A DNA stretch of 48,346 bases from an uncultured Candidatus Saccharibacteria bacterium. GTDB taxonomy: Bacteria; Patescibacteriota; Minisyncoccia; Phycocordibacterales; Zambryskibacteraceae. Both the position numbers and the translations under genes were made by a program. Below the pieces are notes generated by a model that saw only the letters and a program-made list of their open reading frames with translations, ran no database searches and was not told where the DNA came from. Shown piece by piece: positions 4,571 to 20,180 of this stretch; position 1 is the first letter of the stretch, and each line of letters opens with the position of its first letter. The stretch lies in assembly GCA_964355645.1 (NCBI GenBank), contig CAYHDI010000004.1:1-48346 (forward strand), read 5' to 3'.

Positions 4571-6023
4571 TGATATTGTCTTCAAGTATTTTTTTAAGAA
4601 TCATAGGATTCGCACTCCCCTTCGTCTCTTTCATTCCCTGCCCAACTAAAAACTGCATCGATGCCTCCTTGCCATTTTTGTATTCTTCTACAGCTTTTGG
4701 ATTTTCAGAAATAATTTTCTTTGCAATTTCATTAAGGTGTTCACTATCACTTGATTGAATAAGATTATTTTCTTCAGCTATTGCTTTTGGATCGCCGTCC
4801 TTGATTAACATTATTTTTAGAATGTCTTTAGCCCCGCGACTACCAAGTTCTCCGGTCTTGATCATACTTATAAGTTTGGCAAAATTCTTTGGGTCAACGC
4901 TCAGATTGGACAGATCGGTTAGAAGATAATTTGAAACTAGATTCGCCAGCTCCCTATCCCCCAAAACAGAAACCACTTTCTCAAAATATACCCCTTTCCC
5001 TAAATCTTGGATATAAACTTCTATATCATCATCTTTAATACCAAAATCTTTTTGGTATCGTTCTCGCTTAGCATTTGGAAGTTCTGGGAGCGAGGCTTTG
5101 AGACTTTCGACTTTAAACTCTTCTATTTCGCCTAAAAAAAGTTTGGGTAAATCAGGTTCAGGAAAATATCTGTAGTCGTGTGAATCTTCCTTGGACCTTT
5201 GAGAAAATGTTTTTTCTTCGTTCTCATCCCACCCACGTGTCTCTTGGACGATTTTCTCTCCTTTCTCAAGTAGCTCTATATGTCTCTCCACTTCATATTT
5301 AATAGCCTTCTCTACTGCCTTAAATGAGTTGAGGTTTTTTACTTCAACCTTAGTACCAAGTTTACTCACCCCCACTTCGCCAAGGCTTCGCGGGGCAAGA
5401 GAAATGTTGGCTTCGACTCTCATCTCCCCTTTTTCCATATTAGCTTCACTGGCACCCAAATATTGAAGAAGAAGTTTAAATTCTTTGGCAAATTTCACCG
5501 CCGTTTCTGCATCATGAATCACTGGTTCGGTCACAAGCTCCATGAGGGGCACCCCGGCTCGATTGAAATCTATACGACTTGCTTCCTCTTCATACACCCC
5601 ACCCTTGCCCTCCCCTTGCCAAGGGGAGGGTTGGGAGAGGTGTACTGATTTGGCTGTATCTTCTTCTAAATGAACACGAGTAATCTTGACCCCGGCCAAT
5701 TCCCCACCAGAAACCAAAGGATATTTATATTGACTAATCTGATAACCCTTAGGAATATCCGGATAAAAATAATTCTTCCTATCAAATTCGGTATAATCAG
5801 CAATCTTTCCACCGACAGCCACACCGACTCGAAGGACTTGCCTGACGGCTTCTTTGTTTATCACCGGTAGAGTTCCCGGATACCCCATACAAATCGGACA
5901 AATATTTGTATTTGGTTTGGTTTCATCTGTATCATTTTTTGAATGACAAAACATCTTCGTCTTGGTTCGAAGTTCGGCGTGTATTTCAAGCCCGATGGTT
6001 GGAAGATAGTCCTTGACTGCCAT
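4566..6023 (-). CDS. gatB: Asp/Glu-tRNA amidotransferase subunit B, with two short in-frame repeat-derived insertions
   Basis: IGLEIHAEL, FDRKNYFYPDIPKGYQISQ, HLEED, DFNRAGVPLMELVTEP, KVEVKNLNSF, DYRYFPEPDLP motifs. Confidence 0.97.
   Translation of the reverse strand: MAVKDYLPTIGLEIHAELRTKTKMFCHSKNDTDETKPNTNICPICMGYPGTLPVINKEAVRQVLRVGVAVGGKIADYTEFDRKNYFYPDIPKGYQISQYKYPLVSGGELAGVKITRVHLEEDTAKSVHLSQPSPWQGEGKGGVYEEEASRIDFNRAGVPLMELVTEPVIHDAETAVKFAKEFKLLLQYLGASEANMEKGEMRVEANISLAPRSLGEVGVSKLGTKVEVKNLNSFKAVEKAIKYEVERHIELLEKGEKIVQETRGWDENEEKTFSQRSKEDSHDYRYFPEPDLPKLFLGEIEEFKVESLKASLPELPNAKRERYQKDFGIKDDDIEVYIQDLGKGVYFEKVVSVLGDRELANLVSNYLLTDLSNLSVDPKNFAKLISMIKTGELGSRGAKDILKIMLIKDGDPKAIAEENNLIQSSDSEHLNEIAKKIISENPKAVEEYKNGKEASMQFLVGQGMKETKGSANPMILKKILEDNIK
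5370..5399 (-). repeat. 30-bp imperfect palindromic repeat in frame in gatB (copy 1)
   Basis: CTTGCCCCGCGAAGCCTTGGCGAAGTGGGG; 29/30 identical to 41531-41560. Confidence 0.9.
5596..5640 (-). repeat. BoxC-like palindromic element inserted in frame in gatB
   Basis: CCTCTCCCAACCCTCCCCTT-GGC-AAGGGGAGGG-CAAGGGTGGGGT: 10-bp stem, 3-nt loop; translated as SQPSPWQGEGKGGV. Confidence 0.85.
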
Positions 6024-6103: not shown

Positions 6104-6140
6104 TACGCTATAATATTGTGGTCGCAATATATTAACGTAT
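6104..6140 (+). repeat. 37-bp quasi-palindromic direct repeat, copy 1 (contains TATAAT, overlaps start codon)
   Basis: TACGCTATAATATTGTGGTCGCAATATATTAACGTAT; 32/37 identical to 6716-6752. Confidence 0.9.
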
Positions 6141-6708
6141 GGGGAAACTTGAAAAACATAGCCAAGAAAGAGCCCGGAGAGAACATCTTCAAAAGATTGT
6201 ATTAGGAACAATCAAAGTTGCTGGCATATTAAGTGTTGGCCTCTTGGCACCAAGTGTCATTGGTGCCATGGATAAATTGGGTCTATTACCAAAATCCAGA
6301 CAAAGAGAATATATCACCTCTTCTGCAGCCAAGCTTACAAAAAGAGGATTGTTGAAATACATAAACGGACATTATGAACTAACAAAAGACGGTGAAAAAA
6401 TACTACGTCAATGGGAATTGTCCGACTACATAATCCATCGCCCAAAAAAGTGGGACAAAAAATGGCGAGTGGTGATCTTCGATATTCCGGAAAAGAAAAG
6501 AAAAACCAGAGACAAAATTACTATTCTTTTTAGACAAGCTGGATTCCAGCGACTACAAGACAGTGTCTGGGTTTTCCCGTACGATTGTGAGGATATTATT
6601 GGTCTACTAAAAACAGATTTCCATGTTGGAAAGTATCTTCTATACATGATTGTTGAAGAACTTGAGAATGACAAGCAACTGAGAAAAGATTTTAATTTAA
6701 TCCGATAA
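6139..6708 (+). CDS. PaaX-like transcriptional regulator with Cas2-like (ferredoxin-fold) C-terminal domain
   Basis: wHTH-like segment (YITSSAAKLTKRGLLKYINGHYELTKDG) followed by WDKKWRVVIFDIPEKKRKTRD...GFQRLQDSVWV, the PaaX-M/Cas2-like signature. Confidence 0.85.
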   Translation: MGKLEKHSQERARREHLQKIVLGTIKVAGILSVGLLAPSVIGAMDKLGLLPKSRQREYITSSAAKLTKRGLLKYINGHYELTKDGEKILRQWELSDYIIHRPKKWDKKWRVVIFDIPEKKRKTRDKITILFRQAGFQRLQDSVWVFPYDCEDIIGLLKTDFHVGKYLLYMIVEELENDKQLRKDFNLIR

Positions 6709-7780: not shown

Positions 7781-8653
7781 TTACGCATTTAAAGCGATTT
7801 GAGCAAGTTTAACCGCTCCTTCCTTAGATTGAGCTACCGCTATAAAACGACTGTTGTGACAGAAAGTGGCATCGCTTACTCCAGAAATTTTGGCCATTTC
7901 TTCATCTCTTTTACCCGCCCAAGGTTCTGGGAAAAGTTTTTTCCTTTCAAACCCGTGGAGCAATATGGGCACCGCTTCTACACCCCACTTATCATCGGTT
8001 CTGGGATAAACTACATACAAAGAGTCTTTTATAGGAATCAAAATTTTTTTCCACGGCAAGTATTCTTCTAAAACAATGAGTCTTTTGTCTTCTGTTTGGT
8101 CAATCAAAATTTTCATTTTTTCCAAATCTATCAAAAATATCTCGGCGTTTCTTATTTCTTTCAACAACAAATCTTTGGCCACCAAGACTACTTCCATAAA
8201 GACTTCATGCAAATATTCCTCATTCTTGTAGGTATGATTAACAAAAGCATCAAAATAATCAGTGATGCCATAATCGCTTATATTTTCAAAAAGCGGTTTG
8301 GACAAACTAATCCCATTGTCTAAAGCATCAATGGGCCAAACAAGCCTTTCTTCGATACAATTCGCCACCTCTCTGCTACCGCACAATTTTTCTCCCATTT
8401 CTTTCCAGACTAAACCAAAAGAAGCATAAGGTATTGAGTTATCCCTCGTCCCAGCACCCCCTTCTTGATGATGATCAAATCTTTTCTGAGTCACATCATA
8501 AACCCCACCCACATCAACAACAATATCAGCTGTTTTTATGATAGATTCCTCACGGCTTCTGATGATATTGAGTTCTGGGTAAAGTAAAGAAAAAACTGCC
8601 ACAGCAAAAACATCATCCGCATGAAACTTACCGCTATGCGTTACTATTTTCAT
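7781..8653 (-). CDS. MYG1 family (UPF0160) DHH-like exonuclease
   Basis: THSGKFHADD, VDVGG, FDHHQ, FCHNSRFI motifs; start moved to the ATG at 8653. Confidence 0.92.
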   Translation of the reverse strand: MKIVTHSGKFHADDVFAVAVFSLLYPELNIIRSREESIIKTADIVVDVGGVYDVTQKRFDHHQEGGAGTRDNSIPYASFGLVWKEMGEKLCGSREVANCIEERLVWPIDALDNGISLSKPLFENISDYGITDYFDAFVNHTYKNEEYLHEVFMEVVLVAKDLLLKEIRNAEIFLIDLEKMKILIDQTEDKRLIVLEEYLPWKKILIPIKDSLYVVYPRTDDKWGVEAVPILLHGFERKKLFPEPWAGKRDEEMAKISGVSDATFCHNSRFIAVAQSKEGAVKLAQIALNA

Positions 8654-9170
8654 TGTGTTTATAGGCACAAAGTTTAATGAAAAGGAGATAAGACACAAGG
8701 GTTAAACTCATGAGCGGAATGGTGATGTAGCCGTACTCGATGACATAAATCCTTGAACATTCACCGCCGACGGCAGTACAAGGTAAAAGAGAAATACCGC
8801 TAAAGTTTGAATAAGATTGATAGAGGGAGACGAAAAAAGCCGCGATTGATAGAGGAAGCGCGTAATCAAAGATTCCCCTGTCTTTCTTGATAATAGCAAT
8901 AAGGAAAAGTACAGCCTGTGGATAAAGGAAAATTCTCTGCCACCAACAAAGCTCACACGGCGCAAAACCTAAAACATTTGAATACATTAGACTGCCAACG
9001 ATAGAAGCCGTGGACAAAATGAATCCGAGCCACAGGGCGTATTTGTGAACAAAGTGAATGAAATCATGTCCCCAAGATTTTCTATAAACGAATGCTAGAA
9101 TGCAAAAAATGAAGAAGATGTGACCAAGGAGAGTGGCGAATGAGAGTACGGGTGTGATAAATGAGGACAT
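8634..9170 (-). CDS. dsbB: Disulfide bond formation protein DsbB family
   Basis: Multiple TM helices, PCELCWWQRIFLYP (CxxC) and a second Cys pair PCTAVGGECS; start moved to the ATG at 9170. Confidence 0.88.
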   Translation of the reverse strand: MSSFITPVLSFATLLGHIFFIFCILAFVYRKSWGHDFIHFVHKYALWLGFILSTASIVGSLMYSNVLGFAPCELCWWQRIFLYPQAVLFLIAIIKKDRGIFDYALPLSIAAFFVSLYQSYSNFSGISLLPCTAVGGECSRIYVIEYGYITIPLMSLTLVSYLLFIKLCAYKHNENSNA

Positions 9171-9175
9171 ACAAA

Positions 9176-9550
9176 TTATTGGGGCAACACACAAGAAGTT
9201 TTCTCCGCCAGAGTAGCTAGAGCTACTTCGCCATTAAGAATTGAGCCGTCTTTAAAAATCCAAGTTGGATAGCCAGTAATTTTTTTGTCTGTGCAAATCT
9301 GAGTTTGACCACTTCCATCCGGAGTTGAACATTCAACATAAGGCAAAAATTTCTCAGATGTTCCGAATAACTTTTTCTGTGATTGACAATGTGAACACCA
9401 AAATGCACCATAGAATGTTGCCCCACTATCCTTTATGCACACAGCAAAAGTATCGTATTTCGATGAGGCCACTCTCTTCGGCGTAACAATTAACCAAACA
9501 ACTAAAGCCACGAATATCACGAAAATAAGAACCCAAATGTATTTTTTCAT
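9176..9550 (-). CDS. Membrane-anchored thioredoxin-like (DsbA-like) protein
   Basis: N-terminal TM helix, FYGAFWCSHC, LPYVECS, ITGYPTW (cis-Pro loop); resembles the Trx domain of VKOR-Trx fusions. Confidence 0.85.
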   Translation of the reverse strand: MKKYIWVLIFVIFVALVVWLIVTPKRVASSKYDTFAVCIKDSGATFYGAFWCSHCQSQKKLFGTSEKFLPYVECSTPDGSGQTQICTDKKITGYPTWIFKDGSILNGEVALATLAEKTSCVLPQ

Positions 9551-9577
9551 AGTGGTATTATAACAAATTTTTAATTC

Positions 9578-10000
9578 AATAACTCCCCTAACCCCTCTTA
9601 CCTTAAGAGGGGTATTCTGGCTATAACATTCTCTATATCTTTCAAAACTTCATTATTCCAAAAACGAACAATCCTTATATCTTCTGTTTCTAAATATTCA
9701 CTCCTTTCTTTATCATAAATTCTAGTATCAACTTTTGTGTGTTGGACACCATCAAGCTCTATGGCCAACCTTAATTTTGGACAATAAAAATCCAAAATGT
9801 ACGGCCCAACACCATATTGACGAAGAAACCTGAACCCATTTATTTGTTTCCTAGATAAACGAGACCACAGAACTTTTTCAGCTTCGGTCGAATTATTTCT
9901 TAATTCACGGCGACGGTCTCTTAAATCTCTATTGTTGTATAGAAATTTGGTTTTCATTTTCTTTTCTTACCCCCTTAACGTAAGGGGGTTGGGGGTTATT
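9578..10000. mobile_element. Candidate mini-element: DUF559 nuclease gene between inverted BoxC/REP-like palindromic ends
   Basis: Left end (+) AATAACTCCCCTAACCCCTCTTA-CCT-TAAGAGGGGT (9578-9613); right end (-) AATAACCCCCAACCCCCTTA-CGT-TAAGGGGGT (9969-10000). Mobility is inferred. Confidence 0.6.
9598..9957 (-). CDS. DUF559 (Vsr-like PD-(D/E)XK) endonuclease domain protein
   Basis: RELRNNSTEAEKVLWSRL, FRFLRQY, YILDFYCPKLRLAIELDGVQH, RIVRFWNNEV signatures. Confidence 0.92.
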   Translation of the reverse strand: MKTKFLYNNRDLRDRRRELRNNSTEAEKVLWSRLSRKQINGFRFLRQYGVGPYILDFYCPKLRLAIELDGVQHTKVDTRIYDKERSEYLETEDIRIVRFWNNEVLKDIENVIARIPLLR

Positions 10001-12512
10001 TTCCTTTCATTAACCTCTGATGCTCATCCGTATTAAGCATCCCGCATTTCTTATATTTCTTGCCCGAACCGCATGGACAAAGGTCGTTTCGGCCAACACT
10101 AGAATTTTCAGATACAACCGAACGAGAAGTATCTGCGACAGCTTCGGCCTCTTTTTGAATTGATGATTCTTTAATCTGCGCAATGGTTTCCGGTTGAAGA
10201 GTAATGAGAAATTCGGCCACCTGTCGAGCAATGGAAAGTTCCATATCTTTGAAAAAACGCAAACCTTCTCGTTTGTATTCCACGAGTGGATCTCGTTGTC
10301 CATACGCTCGAAGATTAACCGAGCTTCGGAGATAATCCATCGTCTCGAGATGCCCGACCCAGAAAGTATCAATTGTTTGAAGAATCAATCGGCGAAGAGG
10401 TTCGACCACTTCGTCATGTTCAAGGGCAGGCCGTTTGTCCAAGAGCATTTGAGCCTTTTCCGGTTCAATCATGGTAGCCACTTCACCAATATATTCGTCA
10501 ATTTCAGCTTTCCCGCCAGTGAGAATATTTCTTCGTCTTTTATAAATAATTCCGCGCTGATAATTTAAAACATCATCGAATTCGAGAACGTGTTTGCGCG
10601 CATCGAAATTAAACCCTTCGATTTTCTCTTGAGCTTTTTCCAAAGAGTTCGTGATTAATTTGTTTTGGATGGCTTCATCTTCGGGAATATTGAATCGACC
10701 CATCATGGATTTGATAGTGTCTGTGGCAAAGATTCTCATCAAACTATCTTCAAGCGAAACGAAGAATTGAGTTTCTCCCGGATCTCCCTGTCTGCCCGAA
10801 CGACCGCGGAGTTGGTTGTCAATCCTTCGAGCATCGTGTCTTTCTGTGCCTAGAACGAAAAGTCCGCCGAGAGAAATAATCTCTTGCATTTCCTCTGGTG
10901 AACCAGGATTCCCACCAAGTTTAATGTCCACTCCGCGTCCGGCCATGTTGGTGGCAATAGTGACCGCGCCCTTCTTTCCTGCCTGAGCAATAATTTCTCC
11001 TTCTCGTTCATGAACCGAGGTATTCTTGGCATTCAAGATTTCGTGTTTGATACCTTCACTCTTCAAATATTCACTGAGCATTTCGTTGTGTTCAATCGAA
11101 ACCGTACCGATGAGCACCGGCTGACCCTTGGAATTTAATTCTTTCACTTTGTTCGAGACAGCTTTCATCTTGCCCTTTTGAGTTTGGAAGATTAAATCAT
11201 TGTGGTCCGCACGACTCGTCGGTTTGTTCGTGGGGATAACGAAAGTTTCCAAGCCGTAAACTTTGTAGAATTCCTCTTTGGAAGTCACGGCTGTACCGGT
11301 CATACCAGAAAGCTTTTTGTACATGCGGAAATAATTTTGGAAAGTGATTGATGCGAAAGTTCTCGATTCTTCTTTGATTTCCACACCTTCCTTTGCCTCA
11401 ATCGCTTGGTGTAATCCCTCTGACCATCTTCGGCCCGGTTGAAGTCGACCAGTGAAAGTATCCACAATCATCACTTCTCCATCCTTGATGACATAATCAA
11501 CATCTTTTAAATACAAAGCTTTGGCTCTCACGGCAGTTTCAAGATGGTGAACGTACTTCACTCCACCTTCGGTATAAATATTTTCAATGCCTAGAAGTTT
11601 TTCGGCTTTAGAAATACCCTGATCAGTAAGACTTATGGCTTTAAGCTTCTCATCCACTGTGAAATCCTCTTCAACATCTAAGGCTGAGGCAATCTTCGCA
11701 AATTTAGTATACAAATCCCCTGCTGCGCCGGTGTTCGCAGAGATAATGAGAGGGGTTCGAGCTTCATCTATAAGGATAGAATCGATTTCATCTACTATAG
11801 AATAGTTGAATTCACGTTGAGAAAGATCTTCTTTTCTGTACAAGAGATTGTCTCGAAGGTAATCAAAGCCGAATTCATTGTTTGTCCCATACGTGATGTC
11901 TGCATTGTAGGCTTCCTGTTTGGTGGAGGGTCGAAGAAATTCATGAATCACGTGGAAAGAGCCGGTTTCATCACGTTCTTTGTCTAGATTTTCTGCAGTA
12001 TGAGCCGGATCATAAATAAACGATTCCTGATGGTTCAAAATTCCCACCGAAAGTCCAAGGGCAGAATAAATTTGCCCCATCCACACGGCATCACGTCTTG
12101 AAAGATAATCATTCACTGTGACCACATGCACTCCAAGGCCGGTTAGGGCATTCAAATAAGCAGGCAGAGTGGCCACCAGAGTTTTTCCCTCTCCGGTTCG
12201 CATTTCAGCAATACCTCCTTTGTGGAGAGCAATGCCTCCGAGAAGTTGAACATCAAAATGTCGCTGTCCAAGTGTGCGCTTGGAAGCTTCACGAACAAGA
12301 GCGAAAGCTTCAGGCAAAATATCATCAAGCGTTTCTCCTCCGCCAGCTGGCGGATTCAATCTCTCTTTCAACTTTTGACTTTCGACTTTCAACTCATCTT
12401 TCGAAAATGATTCAAAAGTTTTCTCAAGAGAATTTATACGCGCCACAAGAGGCATCCAAGATTGAATGATTTTGCTTTCATTTGACTTAAATAAACTGCC
12501 TAAAAATGCCAT
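9996..12512 (-). CDS. secA: Preprotein translocase ATPase SecA
   Basis: MRTGEGKTL Walker A, DEIDSILIDEARTPLIIS, QLRGRSGRQGDPG, C-terminal SEC-C CPCGSGKKYKKC. Confidence 0.98.
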   Translation of the reverse strand: MAFLGSLFKSNESKIIQSWMPLVARINSLEKTFESFSKDELKVESQKLKERLNPPAGGGETLDDILPEAFALVREASKRTLGQRHFDVQLLGGIALHKGGIAEMRTGEGKTLVATLPAYLNALTGLGVHVVTVNDYLSRRDAVWMGQIYSALGLSVGILNHQESFIYDPAHTAENLDKERDETGSFHVIHEFLRPSTKQEAYNADITYGTNNEFGFDYLRDNLLYRKEDLSQREFNYSIVDEIDSILIDEARTPLIISANTGAAGDLYTKFAKIASALDVEEDFTVDEKLKAISLTDQGISKAEKLLGIENIYTEGGVKYVHHLETAVRAKALYLKDVDYVIKDGEVMIVDTFTGRLQPGRRWSEGLHQAIEAKEGVEIKEESRTFASITFQNYFRMYKKLSGMTGTAVTSKEEFYKVYGLETFVIPTNKPTSRADHNDLIFQTQKGKMKAVSNKVKELNSKGQPVLIGTVSIEHNEMLSEYLKSEGIKHEILNAKNTSVHEREGEIIAQAGKKGAVTIATNMAGRGVDIKLGGNPGSPEEMQEIISLGGLFVLGTERHDARRIDNQLRGRSGRQGDPGETQFFVSLEDSLMRIFATDTIKSMMGRFNIPEDEAIQNKLITNSLEKAQEKIEGFNFDARKHVLEFDDVLNYQRGIIYKRRRNILTGGKAEIDEYIGEVATMIEPEKAQMLLDKRPALEHDEVVEPLRRLILQTIDTFWVGHLETMDYLRSSVNLRAYGQRDPLVEYKREGLRFFKDMELSIARQVAEFLITLQPETIAQIKESSIQKEAEAVADTSRSVVSENSSVGRNDLCPCGSGKKYKKCGMLNTDEHQRLMKGK
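12339..12354. repeat. Perfect 16-bp palindrome in frame in secA
   Basis: TCCGCCAGCTGGCGGA, encoding NPPAGG in the ERL..GETLDD loop. Confidence 0.7.
12366..12393. repeat. Four tandem heptamers within secA
   Basis: TTTCAAC TTTTGAC TTTCGAC TTTCAAC; encodes LKVESQKLK. Confidence 0.7.
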
Positions 12513-18908: not shown

Positions 18909-20180
18909 ATGATCCCTATCATTGAAATAAAAGATTTGTCCAAAAGATACGATATCACGCATCAACGTGGAGGATACGTTGCTCTACGCGACGTTATAGC
19001 CGGAGTTTTCAAAAACCCATTTAAATTTCTTAAACACAAAACTAAAATAATTTTAGGTAGAGAAACCAAAGAGGAATTCTGGGCTCTGAAAGATATAAAT
19101 TTCACTGTTCACAAGGGAGAAGCAATTGGAATTATCGGAGCAAATGGCGCAGGGAAATCTACTCTTTTAAAAATTTTATCGAAAATTACTCCTCCAACCA
19201 CGGGCGAAGTTATTCTTCGTGGTCGAGTAGCTTCTCTACTCGAAGTTGGCACTGGTTTTCACCCAGAACTCACTGGACGAGAAAATATTTTCCTCAACGG
19301 TGCCATTCTCGGCATGTCGAGTAAGGAAATGGCCAAAAAGTTTGATGATATCGTAAAATTTTCGGGGGTGGAAAAATTTCTTGATACCCCGGTAAAAAGA
19401 TATTCTTCTGGGATGTATGTCCGCCTCGCCTTCTCCGTCGCTGCACACATGGAGCCTGATATATTAATCGTGGATGAAGTGCTCGCGGTCGGAGACGCAG
19501 AATTTCAGAAGAAATGTTTGGGCAAGATGGACGAAGTCGCACAAACCGAGGGACGCACCGTGCTTTTTGTAAGCCACAACATGAGTGCTATCCAAAGTTT
19601 ATGCCAGAAAACTATCCTTTTAGAAAATGGCAAAATAAAAATGATTGGAGACACGACCAAGGTTGTTGCGGGATATCTTGAGAATAATCCCCTAACTCAA
19701 AATGAGGAATCACTTCGCGCGCGACGAGATCGAAAAGGGGGGGGGAGGGTTAAATTTACTACTTTTTGGATAGAAAATAATGATGGACAAAAAATAAAAA
19801 CCCTGATAAATGGAGGTTTTTACACATTTTGTTTTGGTTACGAATCATTAGAACAATACCAACCCAAAGATTTAAACATAGATATGGCCATTTCTCAGAG
19901 CGACAACTCTCCGTTAATATTTATATCAACAAAATTTCAACAAGGAATAAAAACCCCCCCAACACATGGTGTGATTCGATGTTCTATTCCTCAGAAGTTT
20001 CCTCTGGCTGAAGGTGTATACAACATTTCGATTAACTTGTTCTCAGGGGGTAATCAGGAGGATTTTATTAAACGTTTCTCATCGTTTGAAGTGAAAGATG
20101 GGAATTTCTTTCCTGGTGGTATTATGGTCAAACACAGTCCAATTTATTTAGAACAAAAATGGTCTATAAACAATGAATAA
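18909..20180 (+). CDS. wzt: Polysaccharide ABC transporter ATPase with C-terminal (Wzt-C) domain
   Basis: GANGAGKST, YSSGMYVRLAFS, IVDEVLAVGDAEF, plus a ~150-aa beta-rich C-terminal extension. Confidence 0.93.
   Translation: MIPIIEIKDLSKRYDITHQRGGYVALRDVIAGVFKNPFKFLKHKTKIILGRETKEEFWALKDINFTVHKGEAIGIIGANGAGKSTLLKILSKITPPTTGEVILRGRVASLLEVGTGFHPELTGRENIFLNGAILGMSSKEMAKKFDDIVKFSGVEKFLDTPVKRYSSGMYVRLAFSVAAHMEPDILIVDEVLAVGDAEFQKKCLGKMDEVAQTEGRTVLFVSHNMSAIQSLCQKTILLENGKIKMIGDTTKVVAGYLENNPLTQNEESLRARRDRKGGGRVKFTTFWIENNDGQKIKTLINGGFYTFCFGYESLEQYQPKDLNIDMAISQSDNSPLIFISTKFQQGIKTPPTHGVIRCSIPQKFPLAEGVYNISINLFSGGNQEDFIKRFSSFEVKDGNFFPGGIMVKHSPIYLEQKWSINNE

Follow-up and report, generated by a model that had tools for sequence, protein, structure and literature searches.

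The window, that is, the whole 48,346-nt stretch of DNA analysed, carries a 423-bp cassette in which two modules of about 35 nt, placed in inverted orientation, enclose a gene for a small DUF559 protein. The cassette is inserted between the secA stop codon and a promoter-like box of a thioredoxin-like (Trx-like) gene. The features of the locus are the following:

8634-9194, DsbB-like gene, after the thioredoxin-like gene
9176..9550, minus strand, thioredoxin-like gene, the downstream host gene
9557..9565, minus strand, TGTTATAAT, extended -10-like box before the Trx-like gene, on the host side of the insertion site
9578..10000, minus strand, whole cassette (module, DUF559 gene, module), 423 bp
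9578-9613, left module, downstream (3') of the gene, plus-strand AATAAC-TCCCCT-AA-CCCCTCTTA-CCT-TAAGAGGGGT, with AATAAC at 9578-9583, the C-tract CTCCCC at 9583-9588 and 10-bp arms at 9591-9600 and 9604-9613
9598..9957, minus strand, DUF559 gene, 119 aa, predicted Vsr-like/EDxHD-like PD-(D/E)XK nuclease fold
9969-10000, right module, upstream of the gene, plus-strand ACCCCCTTA-ACG-TAAGGGGGT-TGGGGG-TTATT
9996..12512, minus strand, secA, the upstream host gene, its stop supplied by, or overlapping, the module end

Relatives with a filled, an empty or a solo-module site all retain the box at 9557..9565, a putative promoter for which a consensus promoter scan gave no call.

Both modules follow one plan, namely AATAAC, a C-tract and a perfect C/G hairpin of 9-10 bp. 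On the minus strand, the left module consists of the hairpin ACCCCTCTTA-AGG-TAAGAGGGGT, TTA, the G-tract GGGGAG and GTTATT, and the right module, whose perfect arms of 9 bp span 9969-9977 and 9981-9989, reads AATAA-CCCCC-A-ACCCCCTTA-CGT-TAAGGGGGT. When one is inverted, the left (36 nt) and right (32 nt) modules agree at 31 positions and constitute the terminal inverted repeats (TIRs) of the cassette. Folding as single-stranded DNA gave -9.2 and -8.7 kcal/mol for the left and right modules, respectively (z -4.1 and -3.5), and none of 200 shuffles equalled these values; patterns for the hairpin and for AATAAC with its C-tract match only the cassette ends in 48 kb (0.00 and 0.11 matches expected). 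The left hairpin holds the DUF559 stop (9598-9600) and the last codons (IPLLR), and the GTTATT/AATAA end of the right module contains the secA stop TAA (9996-9998). A preliminary description of this DNA had reported both stops, as well as inverted hairpin ends around a 119-aa Vsr-like gene, and every one of these features was read again at the coordinates listed above. The left module is conserved in the relatives L001-L004, with a variable loop, and the right module lies directly next to the stop codon of secA (L001-L003) or of serS (L006 and L007). Covarying stem positions were counted but given no weight, since only hairpins with perfect arms had been selected.

Three consecutive G/C-rich blocks are present in each module, the third being a mirror repeat predicted to allow C+*G-C or G*G-C triplets with the hairpin (CTCCCC, CCCCTC and GAGGGG in the left module; GGGGG, CCCCC and GGGGG in the right one), which is the arrangement that defines BoxC, PIT and TM repeats. 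Judged by their sequence, the modules belong to this class of "intrastrand triplex motifs". The ITxF geometry given for it has stems of 6-15 nt and loops of 1-6 nt (PMC4666352); in the modules the triplet stem is 6 nt and the second loop 2-3 nt (TTA), and the first loop measures 3 nt with the TTA/TAA pairs assigned to the stem or 9 nt with a stem of G/C blocks only.

The 119-aa protein matches Pfam PF04480 with 112.6 bits (cut-off 20.6; E 1.1e-32), DUF559 and MTES_1575 being its only Pfam matches, and it matches the solved DUF559 structure PDB 3HRL with an E-value of 1e-27. A Foldseek search with its AlphaFold model (pLDDT 84.7) recovered 3HRL (TMt 0.85) and the homing endonuclease I-Bth0305I (3R3P; TMt 0.73, E 1.2e-4, 27% identity over 95 columns), and Vsr itself (1VSR) ranked behind I-Bth0305I with an E-value of only 0.12. 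By sequence profile, Vsr and 3R3P were undetectable at E-values up to 10, so that the link is seen by fold only; matches to enterotoxin B chains (E 0.02-0.2) were taken as chance. Residues D56, E67, D69, H73 and D82 are invariant in 31 sequences, and the spacing of D56, H73 and D82 (+17 and +26 from D56) equals that of D196, H213 and D222 of I-Bth0305I. The model thus predicts a Vsr-like PD-(D/E)XK fold, the acidic and histidine catalytic residues are kept, and the fold comparison puts the homing endonuclease nearest among characterised structural relatives. The N-terminus is basic and helical only. With a dN/dS of 0.12-0.16, the gene is under purifying selection. The DUF559 family comprises 23,675 clusters at 50% identity (E up to 0.001). 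Members of this type are scarce on plasmids (34/72,556) and in phages (2 records), a rarity that disfavours either as the vehicle. To our knowledge, no activity, binding site or cut site has been assigned to small DUF559 proteins.

The empty secA-thioredoxin junction that mobility of the cassette would lead one to expect was found in two close relatives, L087 and L090, where the secA stop is joined to the Trx spacer, and a third relative, L086, retains a lone module at this site. In the host tree, the empty L090 is sister to the filled L003 (98/95) and hence nested in a filled clade, and L086 is sister to the filled L004 (99/98). The same cassette, in a form comprising DUF559 and an additional gene, x108, is located after serS in another genus, Zambryskibacteria. 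As a unit, therefore, the cassette is present, absent or decayed in sister lineages, and because it comes and goes in this way the repeats resemble the termini of a mobile element that carries a nuclease.

Comparison with the cassettes of L001 and L003 gave an identity of 0.88-0.94 inside and 0.59 right after GTTAT, the break coinciding exactly with this motif. For the same pairs, DUF559 has a dS of 0.56-0.59 (third-position identity 0.73-0.75), whereas the flanking secA, DsbB, Trx, MYG1 and Obg genes reach at least 2.4 or saturation (third-position identity 0.40-0.50), i.e., the cassette dS is about four times below that of its flanks. Between L001 and L003, x108 has a dS of 0.52 and the flanks of 1.1-2.0. 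Synonymous constraint was considered as a cause of the low cassette values and rejected, since the synonymous sites of DUF559 are saturated between the window and L004 and are therefore not generally constrained. The DUF559 tree joins the window with L001 and L003 (96) and leaves L004 outside, in conflict with the host tree. These distances indicate that the cassette sequence is younger than its flanks.

The DUF559 genes of this clade are mostly found at a single locus, with 84-86% amino acid identity, comparable to secA, and cassette copies within CPR genomes are old (69-75% nucleotide identity). Domestication also fits a fixed locus and secA-like conservation: a host-beneficial, mostly vertically inherited DUF559 protein might process or limit hairpin/triplex repeats, e.g., by resolving stalled forks, and repeats might accumulate beside its gene through action in cis, in the way that RAYTs have been seen as housekeeping-like genes. 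Strong purifying selection would agree with such a role, as would the link of triplex motifs to genome instability (PMC4666352) and a tandem array located at the modules of locus L072. [quoted passage not shown]

~5594..5644 (hairpin 5608-5630), minus strand, solo element in frame in gatB, composed of a C-tract, CCCTCCCCTTG-CCA-AGGGGAGGG and a G-tract

This element contributes 15 amino acids (QPSPWQGEGKGGVYE), and the gatB gene of the relative L001 is without it. It folds into a single long imperfect palindrome (-19.6 kcal/mol, z -4.8). The kinship with the cassette hairpins claimed in the preliminary description holds for the architecture (C-tract, hairpin, G-tract), the element also being in frame, but does not extend to the stem (CCCTCCCC, no TTA/TAA), which differs from those of the resident cassette; the element belongs to the same class but to another sequence family. 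Altogether, the 48-kb window has three triplex-type copies. Other contigs from the same metagenomes match only 9578/9579-9612, and their flanks are unrelated; these 35-nt matches point to a dispersed repeat unit. Among metagenome contigs from the runs found, 4/4 span the cassette unchanged, with no joints. Solo modules of the triplex type are approximately 8 times denser in DUF559-holding CPR loci than in 379 kb of DUF559-less CPR control loci, a figure in line with the suggested dependence of repeat abundance on DUF559 for which locus-level density is a weak proxy.

The association of hairpins with DUF559 genes, proposed from this one locus, extends across phyla. Among 78 complete DUF559 loci, drawn from sets of related loci and covering at least four phyla (Patescibacteria, Nitrospirota, Thermodesulfobacteriota/Myxococcota and Gammaproteobacteria), a C/G hairpin is present at -90..+15 of the start in 65, at the stop in 49 and at both in 43, with about 1.5 of the 78 expected by chance (background of 0.017-0.019 per search window), so that DUF559 flanks are approximately 40-fold enriched for inverted C/G hairpin modules. 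More than one-half of the hairpins (161/266) lie within 120 nt of a DUF559 domain, and about 29% have no DUF559 within 300 nt. Taxon-specific modules likewise flank more remote members of the family (40-46% identity; 6/6 genes) in cyanobacteria, Deinococcus, Sphingomonas, Azospirillum and Neisseria, and E. coli ycjD has a decayed copy at the gene end and a true BoxC about 170 nt downstream. Paralogues of the same genome are alike only from module to module. All cassettes share DUF559 and no other protein, x108 being dispensable. Start and stop codons are embedded in the modules, and their spacing, fixed across phyla, points to long co-evolution of the gene and its ends. Two opposite layouts were observed, with the tracts facing outward or inward; both layout and module type track the DUF559 tree, in which phyla are interleaved, and not the host phylum. 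Layout B has the G-tract GGGGGAG 2-3 nt before the ATG, similar to a ribosome-binding site.

The position of the modules exactly at gene ends, together with this ribosome-binding-site-like tract, could also mean that they serve secA and DUF559 as terminators, insulators or stem-loops that stabilise the mRNA, and take no part in mobility. The terminator variant was rejected, as neither hairpin has a T-run behind it on the coding strand, where a terminator scan also gave no call. The modules have no Rfam match at E-values up to 1, a member of their class is found within the coding sequence of gatB, and work that PMC4666352 cites showed PIT elements to act neither as promoters nor as terminators. 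A regulatory role would leave the empty sites, the TSDs and the dS break unexplained, and its probability is close to negligible.

In related Myxococcota elements, outer inverted repeats are accompanied by perfect target duplications of 8 bp. Specifically, the elements of L023, L032 and L035 are 477-530 bp long and have TIRs of the form G[AG]TTC[AT]TCCGG and perfect 8-bp TSDs; those of L032 and L035 are 98% identical and occupy two loci in one assembly. Among the loci examined, the outer TIR occurs beside DUF559 modules only, and no transposase was seen with it. A clear target duplication was not found at the window's own cassette, nor a consistent direct repeat at other layout-A cassettes: the AATAA direct repeat of L001 and L003 is a single event in A/T-rich DNA, and the TA repeat of layout-A cassettes is indistinguishable from the TIR itself. 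The TIRs and TSDs of related elements, along with a dS below that of the flanks, lend support to the minimal selfish cassette envisaged in the preliminary description.

Eight-bp TSDs combined with short TIRs are the classic product of a DDE transposase, and the cassette may accordingly be mobile with DUF559 as cargo, its nuclease serving in defence, repair or addiction. Movement in trans would then be due to a DDE transposase in the case of TIR/TSD elements, to a RAYT-like or IS630-like enzyme or to plain host recombination at the palindromes, and "mobile insertion cassette" would be the fitting label. Solo modules far from any DUF559 and a RAYT/IS200-like gene in the syntenic region of L001 favour cargo status, and so does the fact that we know of no stand-alone PD-(D/E)XK transposase. 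A mere passenger would, however, hardly be the sole protein shared by all cassettes when x108 is dispensable, nor have its start and stop codons at fixed spacing in the modules across phyla; furthermore, the outer TIR accompanies DUF559 modules and never a transposase in the loci examined, and layout and module type follow the DUF559 tree. We consider this explanation possible, if unlikely.

Our preferred reading, to which we assign a probability of roughly 55%, is that 9578-10000 is a discrete, horizontally mobile gene cassette that has the modules as its ends and DUF559 as its presumed actor. The DUF559 protein, probably dimeric, would recognise the palindromic core of its own modules, either as duplex or as an extruded hairpin or triplex, and nick or cut there. 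Repair of the break by copying of the filled allele would result in homing-like conversion into the same site; an alternative outcome would be insertion at new A-rich sites ending in TAA. Recombination between the two hairpins would delete the gene and leave solo palindromes, such as the gatB element and the lone module of L086. DUF559 would thus be the mover of the cassette or the maker of solo repeats. Against a process driven by DUF559, the TIR/TSD elements could move in trans via a transposase elsewhere in the genomes, and the two opposite layouts are unexplained by one simple mechanism. Also counting against the preferred reading are the lack of a clear target duplication at the window's own cassette, the mostly fixed locus and secA-like conservation in this clade, the age of the copies within CPR genomes, the hairpins remote from any DUF559, the deviating stem of the gatB element, the scarcity of DUF559 on plasmids and in phages and the lack of any known activity of small DUF559 proteins. 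In a wider and rather doubtful generalisation, small DUF559 proteins would be the mobilising enzymes of minimal elements across phyla, which may consist of triplex-motif inverted ends and one Vsr-like PD-(D/E)XK nuclease of about 120 aa, some with TIRs and 8-bp target duplications, and the BoxC/PIT/TM repeats of E. coli, cyanobacteria, Neisseria and CPR would be their gene-less derivatives.

BoxC, PIT and triplex-motif repeats have been catalogued since the 1990s without an assigned origin, partner protein or function, and DUF559 counts among the large nuclease families that are uncharacterised; the locus joins the two in a natural experiment, one and the same site being filled, empty or scarred in sister lineages. 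Should the nuclease act on the ends of its own cassette, it would define a new kind of minimal mobile element, account for in-frame GC-rich peptide insertions in housekeeping proteins and offer a structure- or palindrome-specific nuclease as a possible tool. Even if it is only cargo, DUF559 would still be the most consistent marker of triplex-repeat provenance. The cross-phylum generalisation, if true, would imply a nuclease-repeat partnership independent of RAYT/REP and a function for a family of >23,000 clusters at 50% identity.

Among known systems, the window modules resemble BoxC/PIT/TM(ECO) repeats in their three G/C-rich blocks, ordered C-C-G or C-G-G with the third mirroring a hairpin arm (CTCCCC/CCCCTC/GAGGGG), in the T-T-A second loop of TMECO type A (GAGGGG-TTA-GGGGAG), in a length of about 35-37 nt and in being apparently dispersed, often as inverted pairs, and linked to rearranged loci. 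They differ from E. coli TMECO in the core CTTA-NNN-TAAG beside the loop and in the (A)ATAAC/GTTAT ends; the E. coli copy next to ycjD (CCCCTCGCCCCTCTGGGGAGAGGGTTAGGGTGAGGGG) shares the architecture and the TTA loop with the window but neither the stem nor the ATAAC ends. In the most thorough study of triplex repeats, Holder et al. (2015; PMC4666352) searched their vicinity for mobility genes without success and left the origin of the repeats open, and they reported E. coli K-12 copies as only intergenic, whereas the window repeats form the two ends of a gene cassette and one copy is inside gatB.

MITEs and mobile insertion cassettes are similar in size (420-530 bp), terminal inverted repeats and gene-less derivatives, and the L023, L032 and L035 relatives share their 8-bp TSDs. 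In contrast to these, no cognate transposase was identified among the loci examined, and the same nuclease gene is always carried, with the end modules supplying its start and stop codons.

EDxHD homing endonucleases (I-Bth0305I; Dassa et al., 2009, PMC2677866; Taylor et al., 2011, PMC3239194) have the Vsr-like catalytic fold in common with the DUF559 protein, and I-Bth0305I is dimeric when it acts on its pseudo-palindromic target. The inheritance pattern of the cassette is likewise selfish, being sporadic, at the same site and younger than the flanks. Nonetheless, the DUF559 protein (119 aa in total) is without a NUMOD/HTH domain, its gene stands alone between secA and the Trx-like gene rather than in an intron or intein, and the cassette is bounded by structured inverted repeats, with TSDs in some relatives, which are no product of homing.

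The REP/RAYT systems (REPtrons, REPINs), to which the locus was originally likened, have the same layout, i.e., one small nuclease-type gene between inverted hairpin repeats, with the gene under purifying selection and the hairpin also occurring solo in the genome, sometimes within genes. The parallel stops at the protein, as Pfam places the window nuclease in the PD-(D/E)XK/Vsr-like DUF559 family and finds no HUH Y1 (IS200-like) domain; the window repeats are further distinguished by their mirror third tract and the cassette by its clear horizontal exchange.

The DUF559 cassette lies in a Patescibacteria-type genome (GC content of the window approximately 38%), and its ORF is located between a thioredoxin-like (Trx) gene and the secA stop codon, with one module on either side.

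Features of the window
gatB, obg, MYG1-like, DsbB-like, thioredoxin-like and secA genes, minus strand, from gene calls and domain matches
5608-5630, hairpin of a solo element of module architecture, inside the gatB reading frame
9578-9613, left module, read on the plus strand: AATAAC, CTCCCC, a spacer and a perfect 10-bp hairpin with a 3-nt loop
9598-9957, minus strand, DUF559 ORF of 119 aa (Pfam DUF559 match, E 1e-32)
9969-10000, right module: a hairpin of perfect 9-bp arms around a 3-nt loop, followed by GGGGG and GTTATT

Compared in inverted orientation, the modules have 31 positions in common; folded as single strands they reach z-scores of -4.1 (left) and -3.5 (right), and pattern searches of the window gave a chance expectation of none for such modules in 48 kb. 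The left hairpin encodes the DUF559 stop and the final codons IPLLR, and the secA stop is the TAA of the AATAA end of the right module; the features seen in the preliminary description (two inverted modules, each containing one of these stops) were thus confirmed in full. In both modules the outer tract mirrors the adjoining hairpin arm instead of complementing it (CTCCCC / CCCCTC / GAGGGG), which is the signature of an intrastrand triplex motif. Contigs of four independent runs span the cassette and are identical throughout it, so faulty assembly does not account for the arrangement. Other contigs of the source metagenomes carry the module alone, with the match limited to 9578/9579-9612 and the flanks unrelated; therefore, the 35-nt module is itself a dispersed unit with sharp ends. 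The hairpin in gatB, previously described as related, resembles the modules in architecture but differs in stem sequence. This insert adds 15 residues that are missing from gatB of the relative L001, and folds into a single long, imperfect palindrome in which the outer C-tract pairs with the outer G-tract. Elsewhere in the window, nine consecutive G precede AGGG (GGGGGGGGGAGGG, 19737-19755) in A/T-rich surroundings; this tract could be prone to slippage.

A search with an alignment of 31 homologues, limited to one genome per species, resulted in 80 loci (50-62% identity) from Patescibacteria (CPR), Nitrospirota, Thermodesulfobacteriota/Myxococcota, and Gammaproteobacteria. Hairpins were counted under strict criteria: perfect arms of 7 bp or more, a loop of 3-7 nt, and a pyrimidine-rich 5' arm. 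Among the 78 complete loci, a hairpin was found within -90..+15 of the DUF559 start in 65, at the stop in 49, and at both in 43, whereas the background rate in the same loci (0.017-0.019 per window) predicts approximately 1.5 loci; the enrichment at DUF559 flanks anticipated in the preliminary description is therefore borne out. Of all 266 hairpins, 161 are located no more than 120 nt from a DUF559 domain and 76 are more than 300 nt away. Many DUF559 proteins have module-encoded C-terminal tails (PLLR, PLLK, VTPPHLPLT). As a crude locus-level proxy for a genome-level correlation, 10 tract-bearing hairpins were counted more than 300 nt from the gene in 243 kb of CPR DUF559 loci, versus 2 in 379 kb of control CPR loci selected via the Trx-like gene and containing no DUF559 (rate ratio 7.8, p 0.002).

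Two layouts were observed. In layout A, that of the window, the tracts point outward (ATAAC-Ct-hairpin ... hairpin-Gt-GTTAT); in layout B they point inward, GTTATG overlaps the ATG with an invariant -35 spacing, and the hairpin loop contains the stop. Layout tracks position in the DUF559 tree rather than host phylum; on this tree, sequences from Nitrospirota, Thermodesulfobacteriota, and some CPR members are intermixed. At L081:565-660, sets of three modules (downstream-type, downstream-type, upstream-type) occur without a gene; they resemble either the empty shell of a layout-A cassette or the point at which a layout-B cassette closes into a circle or joins a tandem copy. Four tandem units of approximately 220 bp at L072:3140-3990 are each made up of the upstream host gene's 3' end, a module pair (GCTAAC-Ct-hairpin, 19-nt spacer, hairpin-Gt-GTTAC), and the first DUF559 codons; this array is a local amplification at modules and agrees with reports that triplex-motif loci are unstable.

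Six DUF559 genes of lower similarity (40-46% identity) were also examined, on annotated replicons of Picosynechococcus, Pseudanabaena, Deinococcus, Sphingomonas, Azospirillum, and Neisseria; each is bracketed by C/G hairpins that carry mirror tracts and are specific to the taxon. In Neisseria gonorrhoeae (L167:1960-2660), three 281-bp tandem units downstream of the DUF559 gene, a 3HRL homologue, each contain two triplex-type hairpins, CTCTCTCCCTGTGGGAGAGAG and CCCTCCCCCAC[AG]GGGGAGGG; the 2.17-Mb record is filed as a plasmid and is evidently a mislabelled chromosome. In E. coli K-12, the 3' end of ycjD is a decayed module copy followed by a partial 3'-end duplicate, with a true BoxC approximately 170 nt downstream. 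This degenerate repeat of the final ~60 nt of ycjD (ETVLENIRQGLNR...), located between the ycjD stop and BoxC (L085:6240-6420), suggests that the module was long ago the site of a duplication or rearrangement.

The nearest homologues of the window gene (86, 85, and 71% identity) share the secA ... Trx locus, and the content between the modules varies. A 108-aa gene, x108 (MKKTKNVK.VVFVPETH...YSLE[DE][FL]; no Pfam match), is present between the upstream module and DUF559 in relatives L001-L003, two other small genes precede the module in L004, and the window cassette lacks x108. In Zambryskibacteria L006 and L007, which represent another genus, a layout-A cassette follows serS instead, with x108 and DUF559 in L006 and without x108 in L007, and the host stop TAA is again inside AATAAC. 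x108 (L001:5665-5991, L003:691-1017, L006:3660-3986) travels in the cassettes of three genomes, which occupy two distinct host positions. A metagenome search with the Trx-like protein revealed further close relatives, including the empty secA-thioredoxin junctions that the preliminary description had proposed to look for: in L090 (secA 86% identical) and L087 the spacer between the secA stop and Trx is 20-40 nt long and has no module, and L086 retains the downstream module alone. In the host tree, built on the C-terminal part of secA plus Trx and DsbB, empty L090 is sister to filled L003 (98/95) and nested in the filled L001/L003 clade (100/99), and L086 is sister to filled L004 (99/98).

The membrane-anchored thioredoxin-like and DsbB-like proteins (window 9176-9550 and 8634-9194) form a conserved pair in these CPR genomes (L086-L165). 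The secA-Trx gap is a hot spot whose small genes vary among relatives, being 0.5-1.2 kb long in L093, L102, L113, and L146 and holding x134 and x81 in L004. Between obg and gatB, L001 encodes a 246-aa IS200/RAYT-like protein (..YHLYNRG.., 9199-9939), and at the equivalent position the window carries, on the opposite strand, a PaaX-like gene (6139-6708).

Between the window and L001/L003, dS of DUF559 is 0.56-0.59 (third-position identity 0.73-0.75), versus at least 2.4 or saturation for the flanking secA, DsbB, Trx, MYG1, and Obg (third-position identity 0.40-0.50). Between L001 and L003, DUF559 (0.62) and x108 (0.52) have a similar, cassette-like dS, versus 1.1-2.0 for the flanks. DUF559 and flanks are both saturated between the window and L004, so DUF559 synonymous sites are not generally constrained. 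Nucleotide identity is 0.88-0.94 from module to module, 0.59 in the spacer right after GTTAT, and 0.64-0.68 in Trx. The DUF559 tree unites the window with L001 and L003 (96) and leaves L004 outside; in the host tree its partners are instead L004 and L086. Most simply, the cassette was exchanged horizontally in recent times, entering one and the same site in already diverged lineages, which is the pattern of a site-specific selfish element.

Within-genome paralogues are similar only over the module-to-module stretch. A related branch shows transposon hallmarks. Its copies L032 and L035, at two unrelated loci of one assembly, have 98% identity across 489 nt; these two and L023, which comes from a different genome, are elements of 477-530 bp with outer terminal inverted repeats G[AG]TTC[AT]TCCGG, seen solely beside DUF559 modules among all loci compared, and perfect 8-bp target direct repeats (CGAATTTG, ATAATTCA, AAGTATCA). 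The cassette is a discrete insertion with the modules as its ends, and is gained, lost, and exchanged as a unit.

The DUF559 gene (dN/dS 0.12-0.16) is maintained by selection. It belongs to a large family, with 23,675 clusters at 50% identity (E up to 0.001), that is rare on plasmids and phages. The invariant residues of the protein are D56, E67, D69, H73, and D82. The sole match in a PDB sequence search, the uncharacterised DUF559 structure 3HRL, is also the best superposition of the AlphaFold model (pLDDT 84.7). Second is 3R3P, the catalytic domain of the homing endonuclease I-Bth0305I (E 1e-4, TMt 0.73), and Vsr is weaker (E 0.12); VSR, DUF559, and 3R3P were previously placed in one PD-(D/E)XK clade (Steczkiewicz et al., PMC3424549). 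The spacing of D56/H73/D82 equals that of the catalytic D196/H213/D222 of I-Bth0305I, which works as a dimer on a pseudo-palindromic site (PMC3239194).

The earlier interpretation is supported in part: the evidence for a selfish, mobile cassette is good, and the nuclease is its candidate driver. We give a probability of roughly one in three to a DUF559 dimer binding the palindromic core of its own modules and nicking or cutting there. Repair of the break from a filled allele would produce homing-like spread into the same site, fitting the dS break and the sporadic distribution, and staggered cuts at new A-rich ...TAA sites would create insertions with duplications, fitting the 8-bp target duplications of relatives. 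The main rival, in which DUF559 is cargo moved in trans, is unlikely, though a real contender. A domesticated 'repeat guardian' fits the data more poorly and is improbable, and a purely regulatory role of the modules, likewise a poorer fit, is very improbable. Under the self-driven reading, a layout-A cassette whose two hairpins recombine would lose its gene and be reduced to ATAAC-Ct-hairpin-Gt-GTTAT, exactly the long palindrome of gatB, and after a partial deletion a single module would stay behind, as in L086.

The window modules are members of the BoxC/PIT/TM triplex-motif class by their architecture, including the T-T-A second loop of TMECO type A; their sequence does not match the E. coli consensus. 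Holder et al. (PMC4666352) found no transposase or integrase remnants near triplex motifs and called their origin unclear. The only printed hint of a DUF559-repeat link that we found is the enrichment (odds ratio 14) of 'DUF559 domain-containing protein' among genes overlapping inverted-repeat 'programmed inversion' candidates (PMC9881135). The cassette is similar to REPtrons in layout but is not one of them, having no HUH domain, and similar to homing endonuclease genes in population behaviour but distinct in having no intron, intein, or NUMOD domain. The chance that mobile elements of a truly new class are represented here is fairly low; compared with the literature, the cassette is a variation on known selfish nuclease-plus-repeat systems.
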